In this document: positions 48 to 46,902 of the stretch, one piece after another
Position numbering within the stretch: the stretch's first letter is position 1
Layout: the number at the start of each line of letters is the position of its first letter
Assembly (NCBI GenBank): GCA_003990765.1
Contig: RBNJ01000050.1
Coordinates: 1 to 46,902, forward strand
DNA length: 46,902 nucleotides
Origin: Jimgerdemannia flammicorona
Taxonomy: Eukaryota
Reading direction: 5' to 3'
Position numbers and translations under genes: made by a program
The notes under the pieces: generated by a model
Databases searched by the model: none
What the model was told of the DNA's origin: nothing
The model's input: the letters and a program-made list of their open reading frames with translations, nothing else

Positions 48-276
48 TAAATTTAAGCATAAAGTAGATAAGTATATATATACTTCTTGGATATAACAGA
101 GTGGTATATAGATTATAGAATCTATAGAAATATTATGTAGTTATCTCTTGTAATATTTAGTTCAAGAAGATCAAAGAGTAGAAAATTTATACTCAATAGT
201 ATTACTAATAACATCTATACTAACTTCAAAGGTGAGCAGAATAGTATATATACTAGTACTAGTATAACTTATATAT

Positions 277-737
277 TGTGATGGTATAGCTAGATTTGGA
301 AGAAGGAAATAGAGAACAGATACTTAATTGTACCCAGTCCCAAAGTAGCCACATAGTTAGCAGTCCTCAATTTTGCCATTTGCTAAATATTTTGCAAAGT
401 GTAAGATTGAGCTTCTCAATATAGTATAGCATTTTGCAACTGGCAAAATATTTCGCAAAGTGTTAAATGACTCATAACTTAGCCACATAACTCAGTAACC
501 ATCTCATAGCTAGCAAACTTGTGTAAATAACCCAGTATCTTCAAGTGAATAAACCTCAGATCAAAATAGTTCAAAGCAAAGAGATAGCAAAGGAACTAGT
601 AAGCCTGTGGGCAGATATACTTTGAACTCACCCACCCTCCCCTGCAACTCAAAGGACTCTGAGGAGTCAGAGAAGATCAAGTTTTCAAGATACAGAAATC
701 TGACATACTTTTAAGAATAAGCATCTGCTACATTACA
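277..737 (+). repeat. E1 5' LTR
   Basis: Starts TGTGATGG, ends CATTACA; colinear without gaps with 6519-6979; TATA-like TGTAAATA and AATAAA near 522-553. Confidence 0.97.
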
Positions 738-740
738 ACT

Positions 741-851: not shown

Positions 852-3800
852 ATGGATATAAGACTACCAGTATTTCATGGATATACCTCAGATAAATCAA
901 TCATCATCTTCATTGATGATTTCAAGCAGTATGCTGCTGTAAGGACTCTGACAGCAGTACAGCAAGTAGCCCTCATACCCTTCAGCCTATGAGGTCCTAC
1001 CAGAGCAGCATTCATAGCTGCAACCCATGCAGGAAATGATGTTGATGCTATACTGACAGCACAGAAGACCTAGCTCTGAAATATATATTATACAGATGAG
1101 ATCAAGCAAGCCCTGAAGGATCAGCTCAATACAACATGCTAAGGAATGAGTGAGGATCCAAACACATTCTATACCAGAATTCAATATTAGATAATCCTTA
1201 CAGATTATGCTGCTGCTATCCAAGATCAAGTAGCTGAAGCAACCTTCATGAAAGGAGTCCATCCAGAAATAGCCATGGCTATCCACTCATCACCAGTGAT
1301 TCTGGATCTGCCACAAAAGGTCACCTATGCTCAGTGATACTGGATAGCCAGACACCTACAAGACCATACAATGGAGAGAGTTATAAGAGTCAGAATCAAG
1401 GCATCTAAGTCAACTAGTGTGATCCCCACCATAATGATCAATCGAAACACACCTCAGCCAAAAGCTACAGAGCAGCAAAAGAATAGTGACCCTATGGAGG
1501 AACTCACCAAAAGGTTTGCCGAAATGACTGCCCACCTGGGAGATATGGTAAAGGAAATCTGAGGAAGAGATCGCCACCCTGTTCAGAAGTTTGCCACCAT
1601 CTCAGACAAGAAGAAAGGTATCTGCTACAGCTACAGAGAAGAAGGCCACTACTCCTATGAATGCATGAGTGAAACCAAGTGCAAGGCTCAACCAAGCAAT
1701 GCCACATGAAACAAGGAGCAGGCCAATACAATCACCTTTGAAGAAATTGGAGAATCTGATGAAGAGAAATGGGAGGCCTATTCTGCTCAGACCACTAAGA
1801 AGGATGTTCACAAAGAACCCTACAAGAGACTGCCAGGAAGACCCAAGAAGAATCCAGTGGAAAAGTGGATGGAAACTGCCACAGAAAGCCAAGCCAAAGA
1901 AATGGACCAAGATATGGAGCTGGAGCAAGCAGTTCAAGATATTATCCAAGGAACCACCCCAGCCAGTGAAGGAGAAAAAGAAAAGAAGCTTCGCAAGACC
2001 AAGACCTTCAAGTATGATATCTTCAAGGACCTCAGTCAACAAAAGGTCAATGCAACCTTTGGTCAGCTCACAGAAATCCCAACATTCAGACAGCAAATGA
2101 GGTTTGGACTTGCCAAAATAACTAAGAAACAAGGATGGAAGATAACTGAGGCCAATAACGTTCAAGAGGACTCAGGAGAAGAAAGTGAGGATAATCGCAA
2201 AACCTCTGCTTATGCAACATGCCAAATCAAGAATAGAATCTTTGAAGCCATCATTGATATAGGAGCAGAAGGATGTCTCCTCAGCAAGAAGACAGCAGAC
2301 TGCCTAGGTTGGGATGTGGAAGAAGCAACTAAGCTGGTGTTCATCACAGCTGATGGCACAAGAGCCATACCTCTGGGAAAGATCCAAGATGTTCCCATCA
2401 AGATTAGAGGAGCAACCATCCCAGTAGATGTAATTGTAACCAATGCCACCAACTATGACATCCTCATCAGCAATCAATGGCTTCACAAAGTCAAGGCAGT
2501 AAATGATCTTAATGCCCAGAAGATGCAGATCACCTACTGGGGACAGAAGATACGAATTCCCATCAATGTCAACAAAGGAGTCCTGCCCAACATAGAGGAA
2601 AAAGAGAGTGAGCAAGAGGAAGCTTATATGGTGACTACTCTAAAGAAGAAGAAAGTTGGATAGATAAGTAAAGAAGAATGGTGCAAGAAGATTGCAGAAG
2701 GTTATGCCCCACAAGGAGTCTGTCCTCATGGGATCAAGATGTACTGTATGGAGCATGTCAATGATTGCTACCAGTGCACCATTGGAATCAAGAAGATCCA
2801 CCAGGAAAGAAGGCAGAAAGCTCTCAAAAAACAGATCAGGGAAGAAGAGAAGGAGGAAGATGATGAACCACCAGCCCTTCTAGAGGACAGTGATGATGAA
2901 GAAGAAATCAAGGATAAGATTTGAAAGATCCACCCTGATGCAGTCTTGCCAGAATACAAGTCAGAAAATGCAGCTGGAATGGACATTGCTACAGTAGAAG
3001 AAACTGTGCTGGAACCCCAGACAACCACCCTACTCACAACTGGACTGGAAATGATCATTCCAAAAGACCATATCGGGATCCTCAAGACAAGAAGCAGCCT
3101 GGCCAGAAGCGAAATTACTATTGAAGGAGAAGTCATCAATTCAGACTATACTGGAGAAATTCTGCTCATTGCCAGGAACCACAATCCTACAATTCCATTC
3201 CCAGTCAAGAAGAAGGACCGATTGGCACAGATGTTGATCTTCCCAATCATACAACCAAGGATCATAGAAGTCAAGAATCTGGAGGAAATGAAAAGAGGAA
3301 AGAAAGGATTCGGATCCACAGGAAGAGGAGTATTTGCCAGCACCAAGATCACCAAACTTGAGTATAAGAAGGAGGAAAACACAAGCAAGCACAGCTATAC
3401 CATCGGAAATAAATTTCCACTCAAGAAAGAACTCAAGAAAATACTCCACGAATTCGAAGATGTTCTTGCCACAGATTTCAAGGATATCAAAGAAAAGACC
3501 CCACACTACTATCATGAAGTGGATACTGGAAACACCAAACCAATTTATCAGAAGGCAAGACCTGTCCTGCCAGCCTACCGAGAATGGCTCAGAGAAGAAA
3601 TCAAGCAGATAGAAGAAGCTGGCATCATTAAAGAAGCCAGTAGCCCCTGGTCCTCACCTGTTATACTAGCCTTGAAAAAGAGCAGCAAGCCTGGAGAATT
3701 TGCCCCAAGACTCTGTGTTGACTACAGAAAGCTCAACATGGTTACCAAAAAGGATCGCCAACCACTACCCCTCATCAATGATATCCTTATAACACTGGGA

Positions 3801-4811
3801 GATGAAGCACAGTACTACAGCACTTTGGACTTATACTCAGGATTCCACCAAATTGGTCTCACAGACATGGCAAGTGAAAAGTCAGCTTTCATCACCCCAG
3901 ATGGAACCTACGTCTATCTATGAATGCCATTTGGAATGTGTAATGTACCAGCAAGTTTCCAGCGAATGATGAACAAAATCTTCTGCTATGACATAGGAAG
4001 ATGGATGATGGTCTATGTTGATGATGTAATCATCTACAGCCAGACACCAGAAGAACACCTGCAGCACATCTGGCAGATAATGGAAAGACTGAGAAAGCAT
4101 GGCCTATACATCAAGCCCAAAAAATGCAAATTCGCAGAAATCGAGATCTCCTATCTCAGCCACATCATCAACTGAGATAGAACACACATAGACCCCCTCA
4201 AGATACAAGCAGTGGCAGCATACCCAAGACCCACCACTGTTATAGAAGCCCAAGCCTACATGGAACTTGCCTCCTATTATCGCAGATTTATTAGAGAATT
4301 TTCTAATATTGTGGGACCAATCTATAAACTTAATAAGAAGGATACCAAGTTCTAGTAGACTGGCAGACAACAAAAAGCATTTGATGAACTCAAGTTCAGA
4401 CTGACCCAGGCACCCATCCTCAGAAGACCTGACTAGACTCAAGAATTCATCCTATAGTCTGATGCAAGTGCACAAGAACTAGGAGCAGTCCTAGCTCAAA
4501 AGAAAGATAAAGTGAAGTATGTCATCACATACCTCAGCCATGGAACCCAAGGAGCTGAAAAAGAATACGAATCCTACAAGTTAGAATGCCTTGCAGTCAT
4601 CTGGGCCATAGAAAAGTTCCACTACTACTTGGCTGGAAGACACTTCACCATCCAAATGGACCACTCAGCTCTCACCTAGTTACTGACAACCGGACAACCC
4701 AAAGGAATCTATACCAGATGGATAATGAAGTTGCAAGCTTATGATGTAACCATTGTACACTGCTCTGGAAGAACCAATGCCAATGCAGATGCCCTCTCAC
4801 AGACACCCTGA
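852..4811 (+). pseudogene. gag-pol: E1 gag-protease-dUTPase-RT-RNase H polyprotein (one frame, internal stops from transitions)
   Basis: One continuous frame from ATG 852: capsid-like MDIRLPVFHG, zinc knuckle CYS(Y)REEGHYSYEC, protease AIIDIGAEG, dUTPase, RT RLCVDYRKLN/DLYSGFHQI/MPFG/YVDD, RNase H SDAS..LGAVL/ECLAVIW/DHSAL/ADALS. Stops are consistent with CGA/CAA/CAG/TGG transitions. Confidence 0.93.
2925..3323 (+). pseudogene. dut: Trimeric dUTPase domain within E1 pol
   Basis: All five dUTPase motifs: AAGMDI, TRSSLA, EVINSDYTGEI, DRLAQM, RGKKGFGSTG. Confidence 0.93.
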
Positions 4812-4836
4812 ACTACCTCCAACCAACAAATCAATC

Positions 4837-6027
4837 ATGAATAAGGAGCTCTACTATGGAATTATCACATACCTGGGACAGTGAAAGATGCCCCAACATC
4901 TGGAAGAATAGACACAAATGATTATCAACAGAACATAGAAACAATTCGAAACTGATAGAGAAATACTGAAGAAAGGAAAACTACTAGTTATACCAGAACA
5001 CAAGAAGGAGCAAGTGATGAAATCAGTATATGAACTTGGTCATCTAGGAGGAACAAATACATATGACAAGGCAAGAAGAACAATATGGTGGCCAGGGATG
5101 GAGGAAGATATCAGACAATTCATCAAGACCTGTGACAAATGCCAGAAACAGAAACAAGACCAATGAAATCAAGCCCCAGGATCAGTACACATAGAACTAG
5201 TATCATTCGCCCACATTGTAATGGATGTAATTGGCCCTCTACCCTTGACTTTGACTGGCAACTGATACATTATTGTCATCATAGACCTTTTTACAAAATG
5301 GATAGAAGCAGGACCCATTATGGAAGCCAATGCATAGTCAATCGCAGATTTCTTCTACAAAGAAATCATATGCCAGTTCAAGACCCCAATACAAGTAACT
5401 ACAGATAGAGGAACGGAATTTGTGAACCAGTTCTTCAAAGTTCTCTACAAGAAGTATAAGATCCAGCATATTCAGACCACAGCATATCACCCTTAAGGAA
5501 ACAGACAAGTAAAAAGGACCAACAAAACCCTCAAGAACATTATTGCCAAGATCTGCAATAACTATGAGAACTGGGATCACTATCTGCCAATAGCATTATC
5601 TGCTCTTCAGGATATCTGATCACAAAGTACCCATTTTACCCCTTGAGAAATGCTGTTCAGAGAAGAATATTCTCAGAGAACCCTATTATCTAATAGAGAT
5701 GCTGTATGGAAACATGTGGACATGGAAATATGGAGACTATACCAAATCAGGAAGAAGGCTGAGGATTACATAACCAAGGCACAGACACTATAATGGAGGA
5801 ATGCAGAAAAGACCTACAAACTCTTGGAGATTATCAAGATAGGAGACAAAGTCCTAGTGTATTGGAATATGGTAGAAGCTTCATGGTCACGAAAACTGGA
5901 GCCCAAGTGGGAAGAACCTTACCTTGTGCAAGATATAAAAGGGACCACCTTTTGGCTATGAAAACCCTTAGGCACAATAATCCCCACCTCCATTCACTGA
6001 AACTGACTCAAGAAATATCATGGCTAG
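4837..6027 (+). pseudogene. E1 integrase in a separate (+1) frame
   Basis: MNKELYYG start; H..GHLG/WWPGM/CDKCQK zinc motif; MDVIGPLP, DLFTKWIEA, TDRGTEF, TTAYHP.GN; KLEPKWEEPY (GPY/F); ends H(R)N(R)LKKYHG*. No chromodomain. Confidence 0.92.
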
Positions 6028-6490
6028 TAACAAAAGTACTGCGATGGTACTCAAGATCACTAGTACTGCCCAAAGAGCCATTGAGAGGCAATGGTGCACC
6101 ACCAAGCCTCTGACCATAGAGGAGTCTTATGACAGTATCCAAAGCATTGTGCAGACTCATCTCTTTCAGATCTCACACTTCAGGGCCTATCAGCCTCGAA
6201 ATGAACTCCAAGAGTACTTCAAACTTGGCCAAGTACTCAACCAAGACCCCAAAATGACCAAAGAAAATTAGATCGCAGAATGCCAGCTCTCCTATTCCCA
6301 GATCACCATTGCTAAGAGCATCCACAAGCTATTCTGAGAGGATGAACCAGCACTAGCCCACCTGTGAGGAGTAACTCCCTCAGACTTTGACTGAGTCAGG
6401 CGACACCATTGGGAAACAGTAATGTAACAAATTGCACAATATAAGACCATACAGACCATTGAAGCCTGGGAGTTTGAATAGATGCTTTAA
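6020..6490 (+). pseudogene. E1 ORF3, unknown accessory protein (~156 codons)
   Basis: ATG overlaps the integrase stop. The frame continues past transition-type stops to IAKSIHKLF(R)EDEPALAHL(R)GVTPSDF, which aligns with the LTR ORFs of E2-E4. Confidence 0.75.
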
Positions 6491-6508: not shown

Positions 6509-6518
6509 AGGAGGAAGT
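6509..6518 (+). promoter_or_regulatory. E1 polypurine tract
   Basis: AGGAGGAAG(T) directly before the 3' LTR; ATTCAGGAGGAAG also precedes the E2 and E3 3' LTRs. Confidence 0.85.
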
Positions 6519-6979
6519 TGTAATGGTATAGCCAGATTCAGAAGAAGGAAATAGGGAACAGACACTTGATCGCACCCAGTCCCAAAGTAGCCACATAGTT
6601 AGCAGTCCCTGATTTTGCCATTTGCTAAATATTTCACAAAGTACAAGATTGAGCTTCTTGATATAGTATAGCATTTCGCAACTGGCGAAATATTTCGCAA
6701 AGTATTAAATAACTCATAACTTAGCCATATAACCCAGTAACCATCTCATAGCTAGCAAACTTGTATAAATAACCCAGTATCTTCGAGTGAATAAACCTCA
6801 GATCGAAATAGTTCAAAGTAAAGAGATAGCAAAGGAACTAGTAAGCCTGTGAGCAGATACACTTCAAACTCACCCACCCTCCCCTGCAACTCAAAGGACT
6901 CTGAGGAGTCAGAGAAGATCAAGTTTTCAAGATACAGAAATCTGATGTACTTTCAAGAGTAAGCATCTGCTATATTATA
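6519..6979 (+). repeat. E1 3' LTR
   Basis: About 92% identical to 277-737 by eye, all differences transitions. Confidence 0.97.
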
Positions 6980-8106
6980 ATATATACCAATAAGGCTAAT
7001 AGAGCCAAGAATTACAGAAATCATAGATAAGGACAATGATGAGAAAACCTCTCTAAAAGACAAAAAAAAGTACAAATCTATATTATAAAATGAAGTTGAA
7101 GTAGATTTAGGAGATTATTAGAACTAGCCTAAGATATTCTATTATAATAGTAAATAATATCACTTAAACTACACTTATGAATATTTCTATATAACAATAT
7201 AAGAAAGAGTGGAAAAAGACTATGAACAAGAAATATGATTTACTTATTAAGAATAACACATGAGATCTAGCCTCTCTTTTGGTAAATTAATAAGTAATAG
7301 GATTCTGCTGAGTATATAAAATTAAATATAAAGTAATATTAATATAAAGTGATATAAGGCTTAATTTATAGCAAAGAGTTATTTATAAAGATATGGTGTA
7401 GACTATAACAAGACCTTCTTTCTAGTATTTAAGCTTACTTTACTTAGAATACTTCTTATGATTAAAGTCAAATATAATAATGAAATTTACCAAATAGATA
7501 CATATTAAGATAGTCTTCTTGAATGGTGATATATATACAAAGCTATACATTTATCAACTACAAGAATATAAACTATATATTGATAAGTAAAAGAAGTTCA
7601 TATATAAGTTATATAAAGGTTTCTATAGTATCAAATAAGTAGTAAGACTGTAAAATCAAAAAATTTACAAATATCTCTTAGGTAATAAATTTAAGAATTA
7701 CAAGGCCAATCTATGCATATATAGCTAATATATATATTCTCAGGAATGATATACTTAGAAATTTGGATAGATAATATCATTCTAGTCAGAATATTGAGTG
7801 AGATTAATAATATAAAGGTAATATTATATTAGGAATTCAAGATGATAGATATGGATAATATGTTCTATCTTCTTGGAATATTAATTATATATGATAGGTA
7901 TGAGTATACTATATATCTATTACAAGTAACTATACTTAAATAATTTGGTATAAGTAAATACAAACCTATTAGAATACCTATAAAGATATCTGTAAGACTA
8001 AGGAAGTTCAATACTATGCCTAAAGATAATAATATCCCCTATTTGCAAGCTGTGGAATTGCTCATATATATTATACTCAAAATGAGGTCCAATATATTAT
8101 ATATAG

Positions 8107-9706
8107 TATTACATAGTGGTCACTAAGTTCTTCAAATATATCAGATTCTCTCCAAGGTATATCTCTTAGACTAACTACAAGTTTGTTATAAGCAAGTTCT
8201 TATTGGAGTACCTTCTCAAGGTATTATAGTCCTCAAACTTCTTATCTTTAAACTATCTTATTATCTCTTAGATTGCTTGTGTAGAATTGAGGGTAAGTAA
8301 ACTGGAACTAACTTTATTTTAAAGGAAATAAGAGGAATATTTATACAAAATATAATTCAGTAGTTGCTAAGTTATAAAGCTAAATATAAATTCCAATAAC
8401 CAAATAAAATACTGGAACACAGAAAACTATAGTTGTAAGTATAAGTTTAAGTATATATATAAGTAGTTGTACAAGTTCAAGATACCAGTAGAATTTCAGT
8501 AATACAAGAAAAGGATACCAGAAGAATTTCTGAGTTATGTAAGATCAGAATGCCAGAAGAATAACAGTTACACAGAAAAAGGATGCTAGTAGAATTCAGT
8601 ATCATCAAGAACTTAGAGCAGAAAGTTCAGAACTATAGTAGCTTTATCTTCATTACTATCATCTAGACTAAAGGTCAGAGACAGGATATCTTCAAAGAAG
8701 ATGAGATCTATGAATATTTTGTCCATTTGTATATATTGCACATTTCATGTGCTTTATATATATTGTATAGGATGACATCATGACCAATGATGTCATCACA
8801 TTTAGCAGTAGTGGGGGCTCTCCAATCTATGACATTCTCTTCTATAAAATAAGGAACAAATGTGAGGTCTTGGGGAGGTCTAACCTGGATACTGGAGCCT
8901 TGGAATACTGAGATCAATCCTTGCAGGAATTGATCAGGATTGTTCTCAAGAATAGGGTTCCAGAACTCTTTTACCTCATCACTATTGAGGGTGATAGTAG
9001 ACTGGACTTTTGTGGCCACTATAGCCTTCAGTGCATTGGTGTAGTAGGCTGATAGTTTCTTGAAGTCTGAGGTTCTAATATACTCTAAGTTGGAGATTGA
9101 CCATGGTATATGTCTGAAGACCTGATGAATCTTTTTAGCTATCTTTATTTTACATATATCTATAGAGATGACATCTTGTATTTCTTAGTAACTGGCCTGA
9201 GAGAATTCCCAGCAGAGGAGGTTTCTTATTTCATACTTCTGCCATATCCAGAGGTATTCAGTAGTGATAGTGATCCTTATTTCCATTTTACAGCAGCAGA
9301 AGATATAATGATAAGGGTCACCAGTACCTAGGTTAAGACTAGGAGTTCTTTTTATGTGAGTTCTCAGGGCTCTTCTGATGTCTTGAAACATTCTTTCCTG
9401 GACTGAGAGGTCTTGGTGATTCCTGGACCTTGAGGTTTGGTGAGCAGCAGACATTTTGTATGTGGTAAGTCTTTTGAACTATTTTTGTGAGCTTTGTTTG
9501 GATTGCTGTGACTGCAGTTTCTTGATCCTTCTTTTATATTCCTCAAGATGTTGGTCTTGTAGTTACAATAACTCACAGTTGTTCATTATTGCTCATCTTG
9601 TAGCCTGGGTGAGTCATGCTATATGATCTTCTTGTGCTCCAATCTAGTGACTTGTAAGGAAAGGCTGTCTCCTATACTAATGTCATCATTTTGAATTACT
9701 GTTATA
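8107..9706 (-). repeat. E2 3' LTR (1600 bp)
   Basis: Colinear with 15208-16807 at an offset of about 7101; abuts the PPT. Confidence 0.95.
8613..9454 (-). pseudogene. LTR(U3)-encoded ORF of E2, 3' LTR copy (~280 aa consensus)
   Basis: Track ORFs 9185-9454 and 8708-9019 are one frame linked through a CAA>TAA stop. A 1-nt deletion near 8730 separates the acidic tail ending VLNFLL*. Confidence 0.8.
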
Positions 9707-10020
9707 TCTTCCTCCTGAATAAGGATCTTCTATTGATTATTTTTATTCATTGGTCCAGTTTGAAAAATTTGCTGATCTTATAACCTCTGATAGGGGATCG
9801 AAAAGTGGTATTTATGGACTGATATCTTTCCTATATATTTTTGCATAATGGTGAAGGATCACTCTCTTCATATAGAGCAAGGGCCTGATTCTGATTTTGA
9901 CTAATCAGTTGATGGTTCAAACTCCTCTAGCTTTAAAAGTTTCATAAATAAGTAGTTGCTGGTACCATATTCCTTAAAGAATGGTCCAGACAGATTGCCT
10001 GCTGGTCATGAGACATGCTG

Positions 10021-11261
10021 TTATGATTTGCAGACTAGAACCTCACAGGTAGTTATCACATTTTGCTTCTCTTATATAGATTCATGGTATCTCTTGAGTC
10101 TGTTCCTATGTATCATGGTAGGCAGTATGGTCTCTGAGAGTTTTCTAAGCCAAAAGGTAGTTCTCTTGATATTTTGTATATAGAAGAGTTCTTCTCATTT
10201 GGACTTCAGTTTTTATGACCATGAGGCTTCTACTATATTTTGATATAGTAGGACCTTTTCTCTGATTCAGATGGGTTCTAGAGTCTTGTGATTCTTTTCT
10301 ACATTCTTCTTTATCAGTGCTTATAACTTGATAATGTAATCTTCCTGATTTGGTGTAGTCTCTGGATTTCTGAGTCAATCTGTCTCCAAGTTAGATCTAG
10401 ATTTATGGCTGAGATTCCATCAGAATCTTCTTCTCTGAAGAGCAGTTCTTTTGGGGTAAAGTGTGTACTCTATGACTATATATCTTATAAGATAGAGAGG
10501 GCAGTTGGGAGGTAGTTATTCCAATTGTTATATGTGTCTGAGATCTTTACCAGAATGTTCTTGAGGATCTTATTGGTTCTTTCTATCTGTCTATTTCCTT
10601 GAGAGTGGTATGCAGTGGTCTTGATATGCTGAATCTTATATTTTGGATATATTATCTTATGAAATTCATGGACAAATTCTGTGCCATGGTCTGTAGTGAT
10701 TTGCCTTGATATCTTATAGTGGCTGATAATTTCTCAGTATAGGAAGTCAGCTATAGAGGGAGTATTAGCTTCTTGTAATGCTCCTGCTTCTATCCATTTG
10801 GTAAAGAGGTCTACAATAACTATAATATAGTAGTTTCCTAATAGTGTCACTGATAGTAGTCCAATGATATGTATCTATTACAATATAGTGGAAGAGAATA
10901 GGCACAATTCTTGATGACCCAGGTGCCTGGTCTTGCTGATCTTGTTTCTGTTTTTGGCACTTGTCACACTCTTTGACAAATTTGTATAGAACCTCTTCTA
11001 TCTTAGGCCACTATATGGTTCTTCTTGCCTTATCATATATGTTGGTTCTTCCTAAGTATCCTTGTTTGTATACTTTCTTCATTACTTGATACTTCTTGTA
11101 TTTGGATATTACAAGCTTTCCTCTTTTTCTGAGTGTGGTGTTGTCTAGTTCAAATTATTTCCAAGTCTAGTTGATAATAGTAATAGTCCAAGGTTTGAGG
11201 TGGTTAGGCATCTTTTGCTGCTGAGATAGCTAATTAATCCATAGTATAGCTCCTTATTCAT
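10021..11261 (-). pseudogene. E2 integrase in a separate frame
   Basis: Reverse complement starts MNKELYYG; CDKCQK, DLFTKWIEAG, TDHGTEF and TTAYHSQGN motifs. Confidence 0.9.
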
Positions 11262-11286
11262 ATTGAATAGTCTTGATGAGAATGTT

Positions 11287-14200
11287 TCAGGGTATCCTTG
11301 AGAGTGTATCAGCATTGGCATTATTCTTCCTGAGCAGTACTTGACAGTACAGTCATACTCTTATAGTCTGTAGATCTATCTAGCATATATTCCTTTAGAG
11401 TTCAGAGTGTGGAATAGCTAGACAAGAGCAGAATGGTCTGTTTGAATAGTGAAGTATTTCCCAGCTAGATAGTAGTGGAACTTGTCTACTACCCAAACTA
11501 TTGCTAAGTACTTAAGCTTATATGACTTATAGTTCTGTTCTACTCCACAGACACCTCAGCTTATATAGGAGATGACATATTCATATCTATCTTTCTTCTG
11601 AGCTAGGACTGCTCCAAGTTCTATAGTACTTGCATCTGTCTGCATAACGAACTCTAGGTTCCAATCTGGTCTTCTGAGGATGGGTACTTGGGTCAATCTA
11701 GTCTTGAGTTCATTGAAGGTTTCTTGGCATTTCTTGGTCTATTCAAATTTGGTCTTTCTTCGGTAGCTTGTAGATAGGGGCTGCAATATTGGAGTATCCT
11801 TTGATGAATCTTCTGTAGTAGGAGGCCTGTTCAAGGAAGACATGGACTTCTGTAGTTGTTTTGGATCTTGGGTAGGCTGCAATAGTCTCAATATTCATAG
11901 AGTCTGTGTAAATTCCTGTCTGGTTGATGATATGTCCTAGGTAGGCAATTTCCTGAGCTGCAAACTTACATTTCTTAGGCTTGATATAGAGGCCATACTT
12001 CTTGAGCTTCTTGAGAGCTAGCTGTATATGATTGATATATTCCTGTATACTGTTGCTGAAGATGATTATATCATCAATATAGATAAAGAGCTATTTTCTA
12101 ATCTTATTACTGAAGACTCTATTTATCATTTGCTGAAAACTTGCTGAGGTATTGTATATTCCAAATGGCATTTTCAAGTAGACATAGGTAGCATCAGGTA
12201 TGATGAAGGCTGATTTCTCACTGGCATCTTAAGTGAGACTAATCTGATGGAAGCCTGAGAACAGATCCAAGGTAGTATAGTATTTGGCTTTGCTTCCAAG
12301 GGTAGTAAGGATTTCTTGAATATTTGGCAAGGGCTGCCTATCCTTTCTGGTAATTGTATTGAGCTTTCTGTAATCAATACAGAGTCTTGGGGCAAACTCT
12401 CCAGGCTTGCTTTCTTTCTTTGGGGTGAGAACAATAAGTGAAGCCCAGGGGCTGATAGCTTGCTTAATGATTTCAGCTTTTTCCATTTCCTTGAGTTCTG
12501 CTCACAGTCATTCTCTATAGGCAGGTGGTATAGGTCTGGCTTTCTGGTAGATAGGCTTGGTATCACCAGTGTCAACTTCATGATAGTACTTGGATTCTTG
12601 ATTGTAGATATTTCTAAAGTCTGTAGTAAGTACTCTTTTATTCTGGTGCAGGATCTTGAGAAGTTGTTCTTTTAGGGGAAAGTTTTCTCCAATGGTATAT
12701 ATGTGCTTATTCTAGTACTTATCTTTCTTATACTCAAGTTCAGTAATCTTAGTAATAGTATAGGCTCCTTTTCCAGTAGATCCAAAGTCTTATTCTTCTC
12801 TCTTAGTCTTGATAAGTTTGATGACTTCAGTAATCTTAGACTTCTTGACTTTGTAGATCAGTATCTGGTCAATCCTGTCATACTTCTTGACTTTGAATGG
12901 AGTGGTGGGGTTGTGATTCCTGACTATGAGGAAGATCTTACCAGTGTAATCAGGGTCAATTACTCCTCCTTTAACTGATATTTTGCTTTTGGCCAGACTG
13001 CTCCTGGTCTTGATAATTCTGGTATGGTTCTCTGGCAACTTGACTCCAATTCCAGTATCAAGTAGAGTGGTTGTCTGTAGTTCAAGAATAGCATCTTGAA
13101 TACTGACAAGGTCTATTCCTATGGCTCCTTCAGTCTTATATTCTGGAATCTTGGCTTTGGGGTGAAACTTCTTAATCTTAAGAGTGATGTCTAGTTCTTG
13201 TTCCTCCATGTCATCACTGTCAGCTTGAAGCTCTGGGGGCTGGTCATCTTCTTCAGCTTTCTTTTTTACTTCAGCAGCTTCTTGTTCATGCTTTTGTTGG
13301 TGGATTTTCCCTACTTTACTGATACAGGATCAGTAGTTATTCAGGTATTTAGAGCAGTATATCCTGGTACCATGGGGGAATCTTTCTTAAGGGACATAGT
13401 TATCAATGATCTTATTGTACTACTGCTTATCTGTGAGCTTGGCTGTCTTGCTCTTGTTCTTATATACCAAGTATATAAAGACTTCTGTATTCTCTTTATC
13501 TCCTTCCACTATGTCTGATAGTACTCCTTTATAGACATGGATAGAGACTTGTACCTTTCTTTCTTTATAGTTGATCTGCATCTTCTGGATATTGAGGTTA
13601 ATGACAGCCTAGGTCTTGTGAAGCAATTGGTTGCCAATGAGGATATCATAGTTGGTAGTACTAATAACAATTACATCTACTGAGATAGTAGCCCCTCTAA
13701 TTTTGATGGGGACTTCTTGGTTCTTGCCCTAGAGGATAGCTCAGATACCATCTGCTGTAATATAGATCATCTTGGTGGATTATTCAATATCTCAGCCTAG
13801 ACAGTCAATTGCCTTCTTGCTCATATGGTATTCTTCAGCATCAGTATCAATGATAGCATTAAAGATACAATCTTCAATCTGATATAGAGTATAGGCTGAT
13901 GTCTTGTGCTGGTCTTCAGATCCTTTATCTGAGTCTTCTTAATAATCTTCTTGTATATTGTGAGCTTCTATGATCTTGTACTCTTGGTTCTTAATAGTGG
14001 TTACAAGTCCTACTCTCAACTACTATCTGAAGGCAGAAACTTCAGCTAGTTGTCCAAAAGTAGCATTGACCTTCCATTTCTTACAGTCCTTATAGATATC
14101 ATACTGGTGGATCTTAGTCTTGTACAGCTTCTGTTCTTTCTTGCTTTCTCTTTCTCCTGAGACTAGAGTAGTGTCTTTAATAATTTGATAGGCAGCTTCA

Positions 14201-15082
14201 TCTAAATCTATATCTTAATCAATCTCCTCAGATTGGGTCTTACTTTCAATAGTAATAGCTGGGGTCTTCTTTGGTCTTCCAACTGGCTTACTGTTGCCCT
14301 TCTTGTCATAGGGCTTGGATCAGGTTCTGGTACCTTCAGTAACAGGGTAGAATTTAGACTCCTTATAGTATTCTTCATCATCAGTATCACTAATCTCCTT
14401 GATGACTACTGCATTGGTTTGTTCTCTGGTTCTGATAGCATTGCTTGGTTGGACTTTACATCTTGTTTTGGTCATGCAACTCTTTGCATAGTGGTCTTCT
14501 TCTCTACATCTGAAGTATGTAATATTGCATTCTTCTGTAGCAGCTGCAAATCTCTATACTGGTCTCCTGTTAGTGCTTTGGACTTCTCTAACAACATCAT
14601 CAAGATGTGTAGTCATCTTGACAAACTGCTTGGCAAGTTCCTCCACTGGGTCAGGACCAGATTGCTAGGGAAATTTCAGAATAAACTCCTTTGAGAAAGG
14701 TTGAATCAGCTATTTGTTCCTTGAGACAGTTATCATAGCTAGCTAAGACAATCTGGTAGCAGATTCAGATATGGAATGAGTTGGGATCTTTACTGAATCT
14801 CTGGCAGATAGTGTTGAGTTGATTCTTGAGAGCTTGCTTAATCTCTTCAGTATTGTATATAGTTCTGAAGAAGGTCTTTATATTGGCAAGTTTGGCTGCA
14901 CCAGCATCAGTAATAGTGGCTACATTGAACTTATCTCTGACAGGTCCTCTGAGGCTAACTGATAGAAGGGCCAATTGTGCATCCACATTAAGGGCTCATA
15001 TAGTAGCAAATTGTTCAAAGTCTTCAATGAAGGTCAGAATTGACTCTTTAATAATATATTGATAGAATGTAGGGGAATACAT
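11287..15082 (-). pseudogene. gag-pol: E2 gag-protease-dUTPase-RT-RNase H (decayed, some indels)
   Basis: Homologous to E1: EEIKQALKNQLN, AIIDTDAE, dUTPase (~12770-13190: GAIGIDL, TRSSLA, GGVIDPDYTGKI, DFGSTG), PRLCIDYRKLN, DLFSGFHQI, YIDD; ends ADTLSRIP*. Confidence 0.9.
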
Positions 15083-15186
15083 TTCCTTCTTGTCTTGAAT
15101 TCTTGCAGGGTGACTCTTGTAGTCAGGGTAGTTATTGTAGTGGTTGTTCATTTTCCAGCTTGAAAGTGAGGGATTCATCTTGAATC

Positions 15187-15204
15187 ACCAGCCAATGGGC
15201 ACCA
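15187..15204 (-). promoter_or_regulatory. E2 primer-binding site
   Basis: Reverse complement TGGTGCCCATTGGCTGGT, 3 nt from the 5' LTR, identical to E1. Confidence 0.85.
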
Positions 15205-15207
15205 AGT

Positions 15208-16807
15208 TGTCACATAGTAGTCGCTGAGTCCTTCAAATATGTCAGATTCTCTCCAAGATATATTTCTTAGACTAACTACAAGTTTGTTATAAACAAGTTC
15301 TTATTAGAGTGCCTTCTTAAGGTCTTATAGTCCTCAAAATTCTTATCTTTAAACTGTCTTATTATCTCTTAGATTGCTTGCATAGAATTGAGAATAAGTA
15401 TACTGGAACTGACTTTATTTCAAAGAAAATAAGAGGGGTATTTATATAAAATATAATTCAATAGTTGCTAAGTTATAAAGCTAAATATAAATTCTAATAA
15501 CCAAATGAAATACTGAAATACAGAAAACTATAGTTGTAAGTATAAGTTCAAGTATCTGTTCAAGTAGTTACATAAGTTCAGGATGCCAGTAGAATTTTAG
15601 TAATATAGGAAAAGGATATCAGAAGAATTTCTGAGTTATATAAGATTAGAATGTCAGAAGAATAATAGTTATATATAAAAAGAATACTGGTAGAATTCAG
15701 TGTCACCAAGAACTTAGAGCAGAAAGTTCAGAACCACAGAGGCTTTATCTTCATCACTATCATCAAGGCTAGAGGTCAGAAACAGAATGTTTTTGAAGGA
15801 GATGAGGTCTGTAAATGTTTTGTCCATTTCACATATATTGTGTATTTTATATGCTTCATGCATGTCACATGGGATGACATCATCAGTGATGATATCATCA
15901 CATTCAGCAGTGGCAGAGGCTCTCTAATCTATGATATTCTTTTTACAAAATAAGGAACAAATGTGAGGTCTTAGGGAGGTCTAACCTGAATGCTGAAGCT
16001 TAGAATGCTGAGATTAATTCTTGCAGGAATTGATCAGAATTATCCTTAAAGATAGAGTTCCAGAACTCTCCTATCTTATCACTATTGAGGGTAATAGTAG
16101 ACTAGGCTTCTGTGGCCACCATAGCCTCCAGTGCATTAGTATGGTAGGCTGATAGTTCCTTGAAGTCTGAGGTTCTAGTGTACTCCAAGTTGGGGATCAA
16201 TCATGGTACATGTCTGAAGACCTGATGAATCTTCTTGGCTATTCTTATTTCATATACATCTATGGAAATAGAATCTTGTATTTCTTAGTGACTGGTCTGA
16301 GGGAATTTCCAGCAGAGGAGGTTTCCTATTTCATACTCCTACTATATCCAGAGACATTCAGTAGTGATAGTGATCTTTGTTTCTATTTCACAGCAGCAGA
16401 GGATATAATGATAATAGTTACCAGTATTCAGGATAAGGCTAGGAGTCCTTCTTGTATAGGTTCTCATAGCTCTTCTGATATCTTAGAATATCCTTTCCTG
16501 GACTGAGGGGCCTTGGTGATTCCTAAACCTTGAGATTTGGTGAGCAGTAGGCATTTTGTTTATGGTAAGTCTTTTGAACTATTTCTGTGAGCTTTTTTTG
16601 GATTGCTGCTACTATAGTTTCTTGATCCTTCTTTTATATTCCTTGAGATATCTGTCTTATAGTTACAATAACTCACAGTTGGTCATTATTACTTATCTTA
16701 TAGTCTGAGTGAGTCATGCTGTATGATCTTTTTATACACTGATCTGGTGGCTTGTAAGAAAAGGCTGTCTCTTGTACTAATGTCATCTTTCTGAGATCAC
16801 TATTACA
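15208..16807 (-). repeat. E2 5' LTR (1600 bp)
   Basis: On the element strand TGTAATA...TGTGACA; followed by the PBS. Confidence 0.95.
15714..16554 (-). pseudogene. LTR(U3)-encoded ORF of E2, 5' LTR copy
   Basis: Paralog of 8613-9454 with two 1-nt deletions near 15940-16000; intact acidic C-terminus DDSDEDKASVVLNFLL*. Confidence 0.8.
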
Positions 16808-21965: not shown

Positions 21966-22637
21966 ACAAGATGGCAGATTTCTTAAAAATGTCAGCTTTT
22001 TTCTTAAGCAGCAGATTACTTAAATGATAGCAAAGTTCTTTCTTGAACTTATGTAATAGTTTCTTTAGACTTATCTGGTAAGTAAACCAAAAATGGACTT
22101 GTTCTTTATATCAGAAAGTGGACTGGAGTGGAAATGGAAATAGCAAAGCTTACAATCTTCTAGCAGTAGCTGTAGAGGCTCTCTCAAAATATAGTAGGCA
22201 GGCTTGTCTTTTGCTTTGGATTCAAATTTTGGACTGAGGTTTATTCACTCTTGTCTTTAGGGTATTTTATACATTATGATTGCTATCTGGATATTATCTG
22301 GATAATTATAGATTTACCATCTCTGGTAATGTTTGGGTGTATCCCACAGGATATCTACAGGATATGAGTGTGTCTACAGGACATGAGTGTGTCCTCAGGA
22401 TATAGATAAACAACTCTGATTCAATATTCTGGCTAATTATAAGTGTGGTGGACATGAGTAACTATGCTATACTAGGAGTTTATATTACATCTCTCTCTAG
22501 TAACATTCAGGTTACACAATCTTTGACAATACTCATAATATAGTTTTTAGAGAAAAGAGACTAGCGACATAGTGACCAATAGGTATTCTGAGGTGTGTAC
22601 TAAGTAGGGTGGCCCTAGCATATTCAACTGGCAGCAT

Positions 22638-24553: not shown

Positions 24554-24599
24554 AGAATGTGCTTGATATTATACATTATTTCTTATGAACAGTACAACC

Positions 24600-27500: not shown

Positions 27501-28226
27501 ACTTCAATATTAGTAATGGAGTCAAATATCAGAGGGGGTTAGGACAGGATCTGTGGCCCAGTGGATAGCAGCTGATAGGTATCAGAGAAGAGTGAGACTG
27601 GAATGGGGTCTAGGCCTAGAGTGCTGATATTAGGTAGTAATTGCCACTGAAGTATTGAGTGGTCTAGTAGTATATATTATAGAGGAATATCATGCTTAAT
27701 TTTCACTCAGACCATCTTGTTGTAGGGAGAAGCTTTGACTGTAAGGAGTACTATAATGTAGGATAAGAAGGGGGTTTTGTACAGATATCAGAACATTGGC
27801 TAGGAGAGTGCAAGGTGCTTGGCAACTTCTGAATAGTAGTTGGAAATTAATTGAGAGTTGTATATAGGGAGGATAGTGTGAGAGGTTGGTGGGAGAATTT
27901 GCAGAATAGATTGGTAGGGGGGTTGAAAAGGAGAGGCTTACTTTAGGTTAAATATTAGCTATATAGGTAGAGTTGGCAGGTTACTGGTTGTTTGTTTTTA
28001 AGAATGAGAGGTATCTAGACTTAGAGGTGTAGTTGCTGAGATGGAAAGGGTTGATGGAGGATACCTTGACAGGCTAGTAGCTTGGTTGGAGTCTGCAGGG
28101 TGGTCTGCAGTATCATTTGTAGAGAAAATCTGTAGGCAGAGTGGAGAGAGAGTTGTGGTAGTGAGTGATAAGGTGGTTTTCAAGTATAAAGATATAGGGG
28201 GGAGCTCCTCTAGGGAGATTGGGTAG
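24600..28226 (+). pseudogene. LINE-1 ORF2: AP endonuclease, reverse transcriptase, Cys motif
   Basis: IFSLNMN..LFLLQ, (G)DFNI, SDHWG, SGEDGL, GVPQGDPLS, AFADDI, RGGLGL, QISEHWLGEC. Confidence 0.9.
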
Positions 28227-33150: not shown

Positions 33151-33243
33151 GTTCTAGTTATACTTTTTATATTGAAAAATGTTTGATATTGAGAGCCCAG
33201 TCTAGAATTTCATACTCATCTCATCCCCAGTCAGATCTAAATA

Positions 33244-36860: not shown

Positions 36861-37359
36861 AGCACCTATCTACAAGCTACTGAAGAAGGAAACCAAATTT
36901 GAATGGACCAAGGAGTACCAAAAAACCTTCAATAAACTCAAGACCAGGTTGACCCAAGTACCTATCCTCAGAAGATCAGATTGGAACCTAGAATTCATCT
37001 TGCAGACAGATGTAAGTGCTATAGGACTTGGAGCAGTCCTAGCTCAGAAGAGAGATGGACATAAATATGTCATCTCCTATGTAAGCCAAGGTACCCATGG
37101 AGCAGAACAGAACTATGAGTCATGAAAGCTCAAATGCTTAGCAGTAGTCTGGGCAGTAGACAAGTTTTACTACTACCTAGCTGGGAAACACTTCACCATT
37201 CAAACAGACCATTCTGCTCTTGCCTGACTATTCCACACTCTGAACCCCAAAGGAATATATGCCAGATGGATCTACAGGCTGCAAGAGTATGACTGTACTA
37301 TCAAGCAATGCTCAGGAAGAACCAACACCAACACTGATGTACTCTCAAGGACACCCTGA
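36861..37359 (+). pseudogene. E3 RT-connection and RNase H
   Basis: [34 protein letters not shown]; ends DVLSRTP*. Confidence 0.9.
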
Positions 37360-37384
37360 AACACTCTCATCAAGACTATTCAAC

Positions 37385-38630
37385 ATGAATAAGGAGTTAT
37401 ACTATGGATTAATCAGCTACCTTGGGCAGTGGAAGATGCTCAACCATCTCAAATCCTGGACAATCACTATCATCAACTGGACTTGGAAACAGTTTGAACT
37501 AGACAACACTATACTTGGAAAAGGAGGAAAGCTAGTAATATCTGAACACAAGAAGTATCAAGTAATGAAGAAAGTACATGAGCAAGGACACCTAGGAGGA
37601 ACAAATACATACGACAAGACAAGAAGAACCATGTGGTGGCCCAAGATAGAAGAAGACCTGTGCCAATTTGTCAAAGGGTGTGACAAGTGCCAAAAACAGA
37701 AACAAGATCAGTAAGATGAAGCACCCAGGTCATCAAGAATTGAGTCTATCCCCTTGCACCACATTGCAATAGATATCATTGAGCTACTACTAGTAACACT
37801 ATCAGGAAACTACTATATTATAGTTATTATAGATCTCTTCATCAAATGGATAAAAGCAGGAGCATTACAAGAAGTCAATGCCCTCTATATAGCTGACTTC
37901 CTATACTGAGAAATCATCTGCTGCTACAAGACACTGAAGCAAATTACAACAGACTGTGGTACAGAATTTGTTAATGGATTCTATGAGATAATGTATCAGA
38001 AATATAAGATCCAGCACATCAAGACCACCACATACCACTCTCAAGGAAATAGACAGATAGAGAGAATTAATAAGACCCTCAAGAACATCCTGGTGAAGAT
38101 CTCAGAGACATATGAGAATTGGGATAATTATCTCCCAACCACCCTCTCTATCTTACAAGATATATGGTCACAGAGTACACACTTTACCCCAAGGGAACTA
38201 CTCTTCAGAGAAGAAGATTCTGATGGAACCTCAGCTACAAACCTAGACCTAACTTAGAGATAGGTCAATGCAGAAATCCAGAGACTACACCAAATCAGGA
38301 AGAAGGCTGAATATTACATTATCAAGTCACAAGTACTGATAAGGAAGAATGTGGAAAAGAATCACAAAGCCCTAAAACTCATCCAAATTGGAGAAAAGGT
38401 TCTACTGTATTAAAATATAATAGAAGCCTCATGGTCACAAAACTAGAGCCCAAATGAGAAGGACCCTTCTACATGCAAGATATCAAGAGAACCACCTTCT
38501 GGTTTAGAAAAATCCCAGGGACCATACTGCCTACCATGGTACATAGGAACAGACTCAAGAAGTACCACAAACCTATATAAGAGAAGCAAAATGTGATGAC
38601 TACCCATGAGGTTCTAGTCTGCGAATCATA
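37385..38630 (+). pseudogene. E3 integrase in a separate frame
   Basis: MNKELYYG, HEQGHLGG, CDKCQK, TDCGTEF, TTTYHSQGN, KLEPK(W)EGPF, HRNRLKKY. Confidence 0.92.
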
Positions 38631-38944
38631 ACAGCATGTCTCATGACTAGCAGGTTATCTGTCTGGACCATTCTCTAAGGGATACAGCACCAGCAACTAC
38701 TCATCCATGAGACTTTCAAAGCCAGAGAAGTTTGAACCATCAACTGATTAGTCAAGATCAGAATCAGGCCCTTGCTCAATATGAAGGGAGCAACCCTTCA
38801 CTATTATGCCAAAATACAAAGAGAAGACACCAGTCCATAAACACTACTTTTTGACCCCTTGCCAGAGGTTATGAGATCAGCAAATTTTTCAGAACTAGAC
38901 CAATGAATAAGGATACTCAAGAAGATTCTTATTCAGGAGGAAGA

Positions 38945-40394
38945 TGTAAAGGTGACCCCAGAATGATGACATCAGCATAGGAGACAGTCTTTCCTTACAA
39001 GTCACCAGATCAGAGCACAAGAAGATTATACAGCATATGAGATAAGTGATAATGACCAACTGTGAGTCATTACAACCATAGTTCAGATATCTTGAGGAAT
39101 ATAAAAGAAGGATCAAGAAACCACAGTAGTAGCAACCAATAAGACCCACCAATCCCAAAATAGCTCAAAGACTTACCATAAACAAAATGCCTGCTACTTG
39201 CCAAACCTTAAGGTCAAGAAATCACCAAGGTATCTCAGTTGAAGAGAGGATGTTCTAAGACATCAGAAGAGCTATGAGGACCTGCTCAAGAAGGACTCTG
39301 AGTATCAACCTGGGTACCAGTGACCCTTATCACTATATCCTCTACTACTATGAAATGGAAACAAGGATCACCATTGCTACTGAATGCCTCCAAATGTGGC
39401 AGAAGTACAAAATAGAAAACCTCCTCTGCTAGGAGTTCTCACAGACCAGCCCTCAAGAGCTATAAGATGCCACTTCCATAGATATATACAAAACAAGAAC
39501 AGCTAAGAAGATCTATCATATCTTTATGTATGCACCATGGTCAATTCCCAACTTGGAGTATGTTAGAGTCTCAGATTTTAGAGACCTATCATCCTACTGT
39601 ATCAATACACTAGAAGCCAGGGTGGCTACAGAAGTCCAGTCCACTATCACCCTCAATAGTGATGAAGTAGAAGACTTCTGGCATCCTATCCTTCAGGACA
39701 ACCTAGAGCAATTCCTGTAAGGATTGATCTCAGTATTCTAAGGCCCAAGCATCCAGATTAGACCTCCCTAAGATCCCACATTTATTCCCTATTTTGTGGA
39801 AGAGAACCTCATAGACTGGAGAGCTCCAGACCTCCTTCCCACTGTTGAATGTGATATATATAAGATGCATGACCTATATGATGACAACAATGATGACAAT
39901 GAATTCATAGACCTCATCTCCTTTGAAGACATCCTGACCTCTGATGATGAAGCCCCCATGGTCCTGAACATTCTGCTCTAAGTCTCTTGGTTATACTGAA
40001 TAATGCCAGCACTGGTATTCTGATGTGACACCAAATTATACCATCATCCTGAATCTATACAACCATCAGTGTCAACCCTGGAACTTAACAGTTTTTTCTG
40101 TCCCGACATTTTATTTTAGTTATTGGAATTTATATTTAGCTTTATATCTTAGCAACTATTGAATTATATTTTATATAAATACCCCTCTTATTTCCTCTGA
40201 AATAAAGTCAGTTCTTCTCAGTATAATATATACACTTCCTTGCAAACAATCTAAGAGATAACAAGATAGTTCAAAAGATAAGAAGTTTGAGGACTATAAG
40301 ACTTTGGGAAGGCACTCCAATAAGAACTTACTTATAACAAACTTGAGTTAATCTAAGAGATATACCTTGAGGACTTAGTGACTACTATGTGACA
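38945..40394 (+). repeat. E3 3' LTR (1450 bp)
   Basis: Homologous to the E2 LTRs; TATATAAATA near 40172 and AATAAA near 40201. Confidence 0.92.
39187..39981 (+). pseudogene. LTR(U3)-encoded ORF of E3 (264 aa, no indels)
   Basis: One frame MPATCQTLRSRNHQ...PMVLNILL*; the internal stops are TAA/TAG at positions where E2 has Q or W. Confidence 0.85.
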
Positions 40395-46098: not shown

Positions 46099-46830
46099 TC
46101 AAATGCATTTTGCTTCTCTTGAGTAGTAGAGTCTTATGTGGTTGTGATGTATCTTGGTCTTGAGTATAACTCCATCCAAGGTCTTGAGTTGATAAGTGTG
46201 GTTCGAGAATACTTGGTGTATGAGATAGGGGCCTTCCCATTTTGGTTCAAGCTTGGCACTCCAATTTCCTTCTATGATAGTACGGTACACCAGAACCTTT
46301 TGTCCAATGAGCAGGGGTTTGAGGTCAGCTTTGCAGTCATAGTACTTCTTTTGATGTTCTTGTACCTTGGCGATAAATCCTCGTGCTTGCTGGCATATGT
46401 CGTGTAACTGGGTGATCTCTTCTGTGACTCATTTGACAGATCTAGCTGGACTGGTTCAGTAGGATCTTGTGCTTCTCAGCCATACACCAAATAGAAGGGG
46501 GTCTGTTGGGTAGCAGTTGCCTTAGAGGTACGGATGCTGAACAGAATTGCCAGTAGATAGATATACCAGTTTAGTTGATCTCTGGTTCTACTGAGACCTC
46601 GCTTGATGGTCTGGTTCATTCATTCAGTGAGTCCATTTGCCTGTGGGTGGTAGGCTGTTATTGGTCGTAGCTTGATCTTGAAGTTGCTTGCAAAGGTCTT
46701 CATGGCTTGGTTGACAAATTCTCGACCTTGGTCTGTAATGATTTCCTTGGGCACACCATGGCGGCTGAAAATTTCATCATACAGGATCCCAATAATTGTC
46801 TGGGCATTGGCAGTCTCGATGGCAAAGGCT
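46099..46830 (-). pseudogene. E4 integrase (C-terminal part)
   Basis: EIFSRHGVPKEIITDQGREF, TAYHPQANGLTE, TPFYLVYG, KLEPKWEGPY; ends HHNHIRLYYSREAKCI*. Confidence 0.92.
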
Positions 46831-46902
46831 TCAGATAGGGGGTGGGATCATTGTAATTATATGGGATAGATGGGTTTAATAAAGGAAGGGAGTCCACGCG
46901 AA

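Follow-up and report, generated by a model that had tools for sequence, protein, structure and literature searches.

Split between RNase H and integrase, with a conserved integrase start codon, in decayed dUTPase-bearing retrotransposons of Jimgerdemannia flammicorona

Described systems and how the locus compares

In textbook long terminal repeat (LTR) retroelements, integrase is the tail of the Gag-Pol polyprotein, and the enzyme dose is set at the gag/pol boundary by frameshifting or readthrough. The shift sites of Ty1/Ty3 and of antizyme/prfB lie at gag/pol or within one gene, and no AUG is needed at them. Ogre carries an intron between protease and reverse transcriptase (RT), and foamy-virus Pol is made from its own spliced mRNA. 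Here, we describe 46,902 nt of Jimgerdemannia flammicorona DNA (hereafter the window; contig RBNJ01000050.1 of assembly GCA_003990765.1, positions 1 to 46,902 of the forward strand), which is AT-rich and packed with decayed retroelements. Three of these elements (E1, E2, and E3, Table 1) share a junction at which a frame running to RNase H ends and an integrase frame begins at a conserved Met codon.

As in Ty1/Ty3 and antizyme/prfB, the downstream frame at this junction is +1 and overlapping, and a Pro codon (CCC) precedes the site. Unlike in those systems, the window stop that follows CCC is a product of decay, the break falls between RNase H and integrase, and the start Met is conserved. The locus resembles Ogre and foamy-virus Pol in that part of pol is uncoupled from the upstream open reading frame (ORF), but it differs from these spliced cases because the gap between RNase H and integrase is ~45 nt, too short for an intron.

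The available text of PMC10275272 describes “scenario 2” reinitiation, in which the start codon overlaps the stop of a long ORF or is at most ~20 nt away from it; its efficiency is 3-20% in caliciviruses, the SART1 retrotransposon (a long interspersed nuclear element, LINE) also uses it, and viral reinitiation falls off past a distance of ~30 nt. In the systems of this kind covered by the available portions of PMC10275272 and PMC2699510 (calicivirus VP1/VP2, influenza B M1/BM2, hypovirus CHV1 with UAAUG, victorivirus HvV190S with AUGA, and SART1 with UAAUG), the stop and the out-of-frame AUG overlap or almost adjoin, as they do here. The downstream product in these systems is a minor protein, and the layout is already present in a retrotransposon (SART1) and in fungal viruses. 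Our locus differs in that it pairs an upstream polyprotein ORF of ~1250 codons, in an LTR element, with integrase as the downstream product. It also differs in its octamer, AUGAAUAA, where the start lies 5 nt before the stop, and in the gaps of 31 and 74 nt found elsewhere in its clade. Unlike in the calicivirus type, neither a motif complementary to 18S rRNA, resembling a termination upstream ribosomal binding site (TURBS), nor an upstream structure was found in the decayed window copies.

A dUTPase between protease and RT is described for the bdelloid rotifer elements Juno, Vesta, and TelKA and for basidiomycete elements, and Vesta1b and Mag are described as having no gag-pol frameshift (available text of PMC5408684 and PMC2864245). 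The window elements likewise carry a dUTPase in this position, as recorded by Pfam in E1 and in P0384, an intact relative. In the same portions of PMC5408684 and PMC2864245, pol of the dUTPase-bearing rotifer and basidiomycete elements is given as protease-RT-RNase H-integrase and a separate integrase ORF is not mentioned. An LTR element with a separate or reinitiated integrase cistron was not found in full-text literature searches, which did not extend to subscription journals, Repbase, or GyDB.

The split between RNase H and integrase

The pattern CCCTGA-N25-ATGAATAA occurs exactly three times in the window, in E1 (4806-4844, +), E3 (37354-37392, +), and E2 (11292-11254, -), and had 0 matches across 100 dinucleotide-preserving shuffles. 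This bears out the identical three-copy geometry reported in a preliminary description of this DNA. The RNase H frame ends ...AD(A/V/T)LS(Q/R)(T/I)P-TGA in all three copies. Relative to it, integrase, MNKELYYG(I/L)I(T/S)YL..., is in +1, a frame shift that had been read before. The spacer is the most diverged stretch at the junction, with 11/25 positions identical between E1 and E3 by manual count, yet it contains no +1 stop in any copy, again as first described. By contrast, the 12 bases ATGAATAAGGAG are invariant across the three copies. Because E1 DNA is only 67-71% identical to E2 and E3 (self-BLAST), the window holds two families, and the geometry is not that of one duplicated dead copy. 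E2 has extra 1-nt deletions on both sides of its junction; its TGA is present as previously noted, but spans 11289-11287 on the minus strand. To this picture, we add a second conserved frame-0 stop, the TAA inside ATGAATAA (Table 1).

Intact relatives of both window families were obtained by protein searches and come from metagenome assemblies. One of them, P0384, has an intact 1258-aa ORF1 in which Pfam records zf-CCHC, protease, dUTPase, RT, and RNase H, and no integrase. E1 matches P0384 in a single tblastn high-scoring pair over residues 5-1258 (67.7%), and the alignment has 69.2% identity over 1243 aa with 16 in-frame stops. This single-frame alignment means that there is no gag/pol shift, and it upholds the earlier claim that gag to RNase H is one frame. 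The Pfam hits on E1 ORF1 itself were RVP, dUTPase, RVT_1, and RT_RNaseH, with the zinc knuckle of gag recorded in its relative P0384. Over 408 aa, the E1 integrase shares 77.7% identity with intact P0364 and has 15 in-frame stops. In E3, the RNase H end is 85.8% identical to P0378 and the integrase 78.9% identical to P0362, while E2 matches P0384 and P0364 by tblastn in several frames. The features of a Ty3/gypsy-type (Metaviridae-like) element were found in E1: a direct LTR pair, TG...CA ends, and primer-binding-like and polypurine sites. The domain order protease-RT-RNase H-integrase, with dUTPase between protease and RT, was obtained from Pfam on E1 and from P0384 plus P0364. The window elements are best explained as decayed copies of an LTR retrotransposon of Ty3/gypsy type that bears a dUTPase and has a naturally split pol.

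The protein ends of intact relatives locate the real stop of ORF1. In a cluster 86% identical to E3, ORF1 ends ...ADALSRTPRNTP(I/T)KTIQHE in 3/3 members, and in an E1-like cluster it ends ...ADALSRMPRRTQ(P/T)PYNHHE in all three members reaching the end. A more distant dUTPase-bearing cluster ends ...SRTPRT(T/A)GTQGR(A/V)AK in 4/4, with an equal tail length. In the window families, the final ...HE corresponds to CAT-GAA just ahead of the TAA of ATGAATAA. From these protein ends and the window DNA, we deduce that stop and start probably overlap in intact members as well. In the dUTPase subclade, ORF1 repeatedly ends 12-14 residues past D.LSR (P0005, P0397, P0384, P0011, and P0017; also P0133), which suggests that the stop may be kept close to the AUG.

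The first stop at the junction, the TGA after CCC, is a different matter. At its position, the residue is Arg in 10/10 intact-relative ORF1 proteins that reach it, and ORF1 continues for 10-11 residues. E1 and E3 aligned to intact relatives contain 40 in-frame stops in total: Arg is faced by TGA in 16 cases (4809 and 37357 included), Trp by TAG in 7, and Gln by TAA or TAG in 11. The ratio of observed to expected CpG is 0.13 in E1 and 0.02 in both E2 and E3. Loss of the same Arg codon in parallel in three copies is expected because the copies are nearly CpG-free; at integrase residue 110, too, two of the three window copies have a stop codon. The CCC-TGA stop is therefore without function, one among many decay stops of CpG type. 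An alternative genetic code was rejected, since the stops stand where intact relatives have Arg, Gln, and Trp and follow a CpG/transition pattern. As a caution, stops conserved among CpG-decayed copies can mimic recoding signals.

CpG is nearly missing from the whole window (observed/expected 0.09), with an excess of TpG and CpA. Such a loss suggests that repeats in this host undergo heavy cytosine methylation and deamination.

On the integrase side, the start Met is present in 3/3 window copies and in 15/15 family integrase ORFs covering the site, which read MNKELYY in 14 cases and MIKELYY in one. The Met is the first residue of six of these 15; the other nine run a further 18-32 residues upstream in frame. 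Intact integrase ORFs of 415-447 aa exist in the window families. A wider integrase profile search covered 1.84 billion representative proteins; from the 150 best hits, we took the 36 with a match start at or before profile position 21. Among these, stand-alone integrase ORFs had Met at the site in 22/24 cases, began exactly there in 19/24, and share the consensus M-[NDE]-x-x-x-Y-x-x-[IL]-x-x-Y-L. By contrast, longer proteins with an internal integrase match had Met in only 1/12 and R, Q, T, E, or L in the other 11. One stand-alone integrase ORF, P0249, has an in-frame ALSR-like stretch upstream, and, judged from this sequence, the split may be absent in some members. Rotifera and Mucoromycota are the labels of the Atlas clusters nearest to the integrase, and integrase alignment scans of viral contigs and genome contigs gave no confirmed relative.

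Some hits of the same search, P0210, P0212, and others of 2000-3500 aa, are very long gene models in which the integrase profile matches only from position 41. They are possibly gene predictions that bridge element junctions by artificial introns. P0210 and P0212 are named from a pseudoscorpion genome; related integrases thus occur in arthropods.

To place the split among relatives, we classified 122 RT-RNase H relatives (the 120 best hits and two added cluster members). Integrase is absent from 52 that end ≤35 aa after D.LSR and from 34 with a longer tail; it is in the ORF of 31, and 5 lack the motif. In a maximum-likelihood tree of these relatives plus E1 (midpoint root; one of the 123 rows dropped for its short match), E1 fell in an 81-row clade with a Shimodaira-Hasegawa-like approximate likelihood ratio test (SH-aLRT) support of 93, made up of 48 short-tail rows, 29 long-tail rows, 3 rows without the motif, and E1. 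None of the 31 rows with integrase in the ORF lay inside this clade; they were in other well-supported clades, and three short-tail rows also fell outside. No relative in the family or in the 81-row clade joins RNase H and integrase in one ORF. All four metagenome contigs that bridge the spacer do so without gaps, and among the indels listed for contigs of four runs (four studies), none falls within 4300-5400. The frame break is therefore genuine and old; a chance indel had already been judged unlikely in the preliminary description, and rightly so.

Seven sequencing runs contained window sequence, each at a small share (0.05-0.10), and no RNA run was listed among them. A single contig joint, from 4754 to 4820, skips 65 nt (one contig, depth 2.2, ends GT..TC) and does not join the RNase H frame to the integrase frame; we read it as a two-piece alignment of a divergent E3-like contig. 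A frame-restoring intron was rejected: only ~45 nt separate conserved RNase H and integrase coding sequence, which is too short, and there is no GT in the E1 junction. No AG occurs in the E1 spacer or within ~80 nt before the integrase ATG of L064, a metagenome locus described below, and we found no frame-restoring GT...AG.

A metagenome scan gave 80 loci, with an uninterrupted RNase H-integrase ORF in 41, the two separated in 24, and no integrase in 15. Nine of the 24 separated loci (L001, L064, L008, L059, L022, L024, L049, L053, and L078) and one uninterrupted locus (L079) were read in three frames. Among the loci read, only L001 and L064 are split-clade members, and each has nothing but split-clade rows as its 12 nearest neighbours; the others look like ordinary in-frame elements with scattered damage or like members of other lineages. 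L001 is intact, with ORFs at 1-2916 (972 aa), 2898-4961 (688 aa), and 4977-6263 (429 aa). Its RNase H and integrase are in the same frame with two stops between them, and its integrase ATG, at 4995, lies 31 nt past the first stop with 18 nt between the second stop and the ATG. Joining RNase H to integrase in L001 would mean reading through both stops. In L064, ORF1 terminates at 968-970, the integrase frame is -1 and opens at 988, and the ATG is at 1045, leaving a 74-nt gap with no overlap, so frameshifting is impossible there. Three frame relations combined with one conserved Met are as predicted for an independently initiated cistron.

Gag (1-2916) and protease-RT-RNase H (2898-4961) are themselves separate ORFs in L001, with a 19-nt overlap, and the element consists of three cistrons.

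What follows RNase H also varies in two other subclades. In a sister subclade (P0012, P0024, P0044, P0049, P0051, P0054, P0102, and others), ORF1 continues after RNase H into a Cys/His-rich extension of 200-350 residues with a conserved block, ...RGGSKCT..CD.ENHH.HTYC..C.RNLPYG...PWW.EP, and no Pfam integrase domain recorded. Another subclade (P0140, P0147, P0157, and P0142) has a conserved ORF1 tail of 25-27 residues after ADALSR, ending ...ERLPK.GPFLPD(Y/F). Conservation in this latter group suggests that a tail after RNase H can be a selected peptide.

How integrase may be expressed

We give about an even chance to the reading that integrase is a separately initiated cistron which, in the window family, is translated by termination-reinitiation at AUGAAUAA, presumably coupled to termination. 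The split itself, the real ORF1 stop, the start Met, and the decay of the TGA are established by the comparisons above. On this reading, working copies have one long ORF for gag-protease-dUTPase-RT-RNase H, ending ~13 residues past ADALSR at the TAA of ATGAATAA. Integrase follows downstream as a cistron of its own in the +1 frame; its start codon is the ATG of that octamer, placed 5 nt ahead of the stop. The start Met lies at the expected N-terminus of mature integrase, in effect with a stop-start junction in place of a protease cleavage site. A fraction of the ribosomes terminating at UAA would re-initiate on the overlapping AUG, and the resulting amount of integrase would be small relative to the gag-RT-RNase H polyprotein. 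Stop and AUG overlap out of frame in 3/3 window copies, and the downstream AUG is conserved, which is the layout that reinitiation predicts. The preliminary description had held this in reserve, proposing that TGA is a decayed Arg codon and that ribosomes restart at the octamer. This fallback fits the data best: its decay part stands, and the restart mechanism itself is what we infer.

Several observations weigh against coupled reinitiation. The motif TGGGA is absent from the 200 nt upstream in 3/3 of the decayed window copies, and their junction RNA folds no better than shuffles (z +0.6 to +1.5). The AUG lies 74 nt past the stop in L064 and 31 nt past the first stop in L001. L064 fits reinitiation poorly because its gap exceeds the ~30-nt limit, and the clade-wide mechanism may differ from coupled reinitiation. 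Moreover, the TAA arises where integrase encodes Asn-Lys, so it may lie there only incidentally. Frameshifting is also permitted in intact family members, whose +1 frame stays open for 18-32 codons before the AUG.

Integrase could instead be translated from the same AUG on an RNA of its own (a spliced or subgenomic transcript, or one from an internal promoter) or through an internal ribosome entry site, with the stop-start overlap incidental. Foamy-virus Pol and retroviral env mRNAs are precedents for expression from a separate RNA. The conserved Met and the free frame relation fit this explanation as well as they fit reinitiation, the 74-nt gap of L064 fits it better, and a TAA formed by integrase codons needs no separate selection for its position. 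However, the AG acceptor that splicing would use is missing ahead of the integrase ATG in both E1 and L064, and the recurring short ORF1 tails suggest a stop held near the AUG. We regard expression from a separate RNA or by internal entry as possible but unlikely.

A +1 frameshift within the ORF overlap, at Pro-Arg, appears improbable. Here, P-site CCC would re-pair one base forward at a slow Arg codon to yield an RNase H-integrase fusion; the Ty1 “hungry codon” site is the model for such a slow-codon shift. The +1 frame is indeed open from the site to integrase in all three window copies and in 9/9 family integrase ORFs that extend upstream (by 18-32 residues), and the Pro codon is CCC in every copy. 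Within the dUTPase subclade, Pro-Arg after SR.x is kept in P0384, P0005, P0397, P0007, P0011, P0017, and P0112, but not in P0008 or P0019. Yet by a rough estimate, the chance of an open +1 run of ~30 codons is ~0.2, which is not unusual. A frameshift would have no need of an AUG; nevertheless, the Met is conserved, and most stand-alone integrase ORFs begin with it. Nor can such a shift be the mechanism of the clade, given that L064 has no ORF overlap and that L001 keeps one frame interrupted by stops.

We consider it very improbable that the split is a defect and that these lineages are non-autonomous, with integrase borrowed in trans. Every window copy is dead, as this explanation would have it, but the same families hold intact 415-447-aa integrase ORFs and the intact 1258-aa ORF1, the split is common to the 81-row clade, and the decayed window integrases are still 78-79% identical to intact ORFs.

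Least credible of all is the stop-adjacent +1 frameshift at CCC-UGA, of antizyme or prfB type, that the preliminary description put forward: CCC-TGA is found in 3/3 window copies, CCC_UGA is a known shift-prone sequence in Escherichia coli, and the downstream frame is open from the site into integrase in the three window copies and nine intact integrase ORFs extending upstream, but all ten intact ORF1 ends have Arg and read on, TGA opposite Arg is the commonest decay stop in the window copies (16/40), and parallel decay in three copies is expected at observed/expected CpG of 0.02-0.13.

Returning to separate initiation at a conserved AUG, we tentatively extend it beyond the window, with somewhat less than even confidence. 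A large and old gypsy-type clade of soil eukaryotes (81 of the 122 nearest RT-RNase H relatives, dUTPase-bearing ones included) may have swapped the RNase H/integrase cleavage junction for a stop-start. Integrase would then be its own cistron, translated from a conserved AUG after a ~1250-codon ORF and, in this family, reinitiated at AUGAAUAA without a calicivirus-type TURBS. By its parts, this is an ordinary gypsy-type element; what is unusual is its clade-wide expression layout, in a group that is little described. The sole regulated step would lie at the RNase H/integrase boundary and would use a conserved start codon instead of a cleavage site. If true, this would be the first case among LTR retroelements of reinitiation setting the integrase dose, extending the mechanism from RNA viruses and LINEs to LTR elements and raising the question of how integrase made as a free protein gets into the particle. 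The split also matters for annotation: a gag-pol ORF that seems “integrase-less” and an “orphan” integrase ORF, whether from a metagenome or from a fungal or invertebrate genome, can be two halves of one intact element.

Other features of the window

Table 1. Positions of the retroelement copies and of their RNase H/integrase junctions in the window
Feature	Position	Strand	Description
E1 5' LTR	276..738	+	TG...CA ends, followed by a TGG... primer-binding-like site; self-BLAST pair with 6518-6980
E1 ORF1, decayed	1074..4844	+	gag, protease, dUTPase, RT, and RNase H in one frame; natural stop TAA 4842-4844
E1 CCC-TGA	4806..4811	+	Pro codon, then decay stop; Arg in intact relatives
E1 25-nt spacer	4812..4836	+	Frame 0 holds the last ORF1-tail residues (relatives: RRTQ(P/T)PYNHHE, RNTP(I/T)KTIQHE); also open in +1
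E1 ATGAATAA	4837..4844	+	Integrase start codon 4837-4839 overlaps ORF1 stop codon 4842-4844
E1 integrase cistron, decayed	4837..6060	+	HHCC zinc finger and rve core; Pfam Integrase_H2C2 and rve
E1 3' LTR	6518..6980	+	Purine-rich tract before it
E2, full-length, decayed, second family	8111..16805	-	1.6-kb LTRs 8111-9704 and 15212-16805
E2 junction	11254..11292	-	CCC 11292-11290, TGA 11289-11287, ATG 11261-11259, TAA 11256-11254
E3, 5'-truncated, decayed	36861..39827	+	82% identical to E2 (self-BLAST)
E3 junction	37354..37392	+	CCC-TGA 37354-37359, ATG 37385-37387, TAA 37390-37392
E4 integrase fragment, another more distant family	46108..46832	-	tblastn to P0364, 39-42% identity; own RNase H/integrase junction beyond window end

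The two LTRs of E1 are 91.8% identical, and those of E2 are 85.2% identical (self-BLAST). The target-site duplication of E1 is ambiguous because its flank is AT-simple. An isolated dUTPase-like fragment at 18304-18699 (-), 28% identical to residues 616-751 of P0384, is presumably the remnant of a further element.

GC skew in the window is extreme and opposite in two stretches, from +0.39 to +0.48 at 22001-28000 and then from -0.37 to -0.53 at 30001-36000. Self-BLAST gave no match between these two stretches, and they contain no tandem repeats. A LINE-like RT fragment (26471-26932, ...FADDIVVG...) lies inside one of them.

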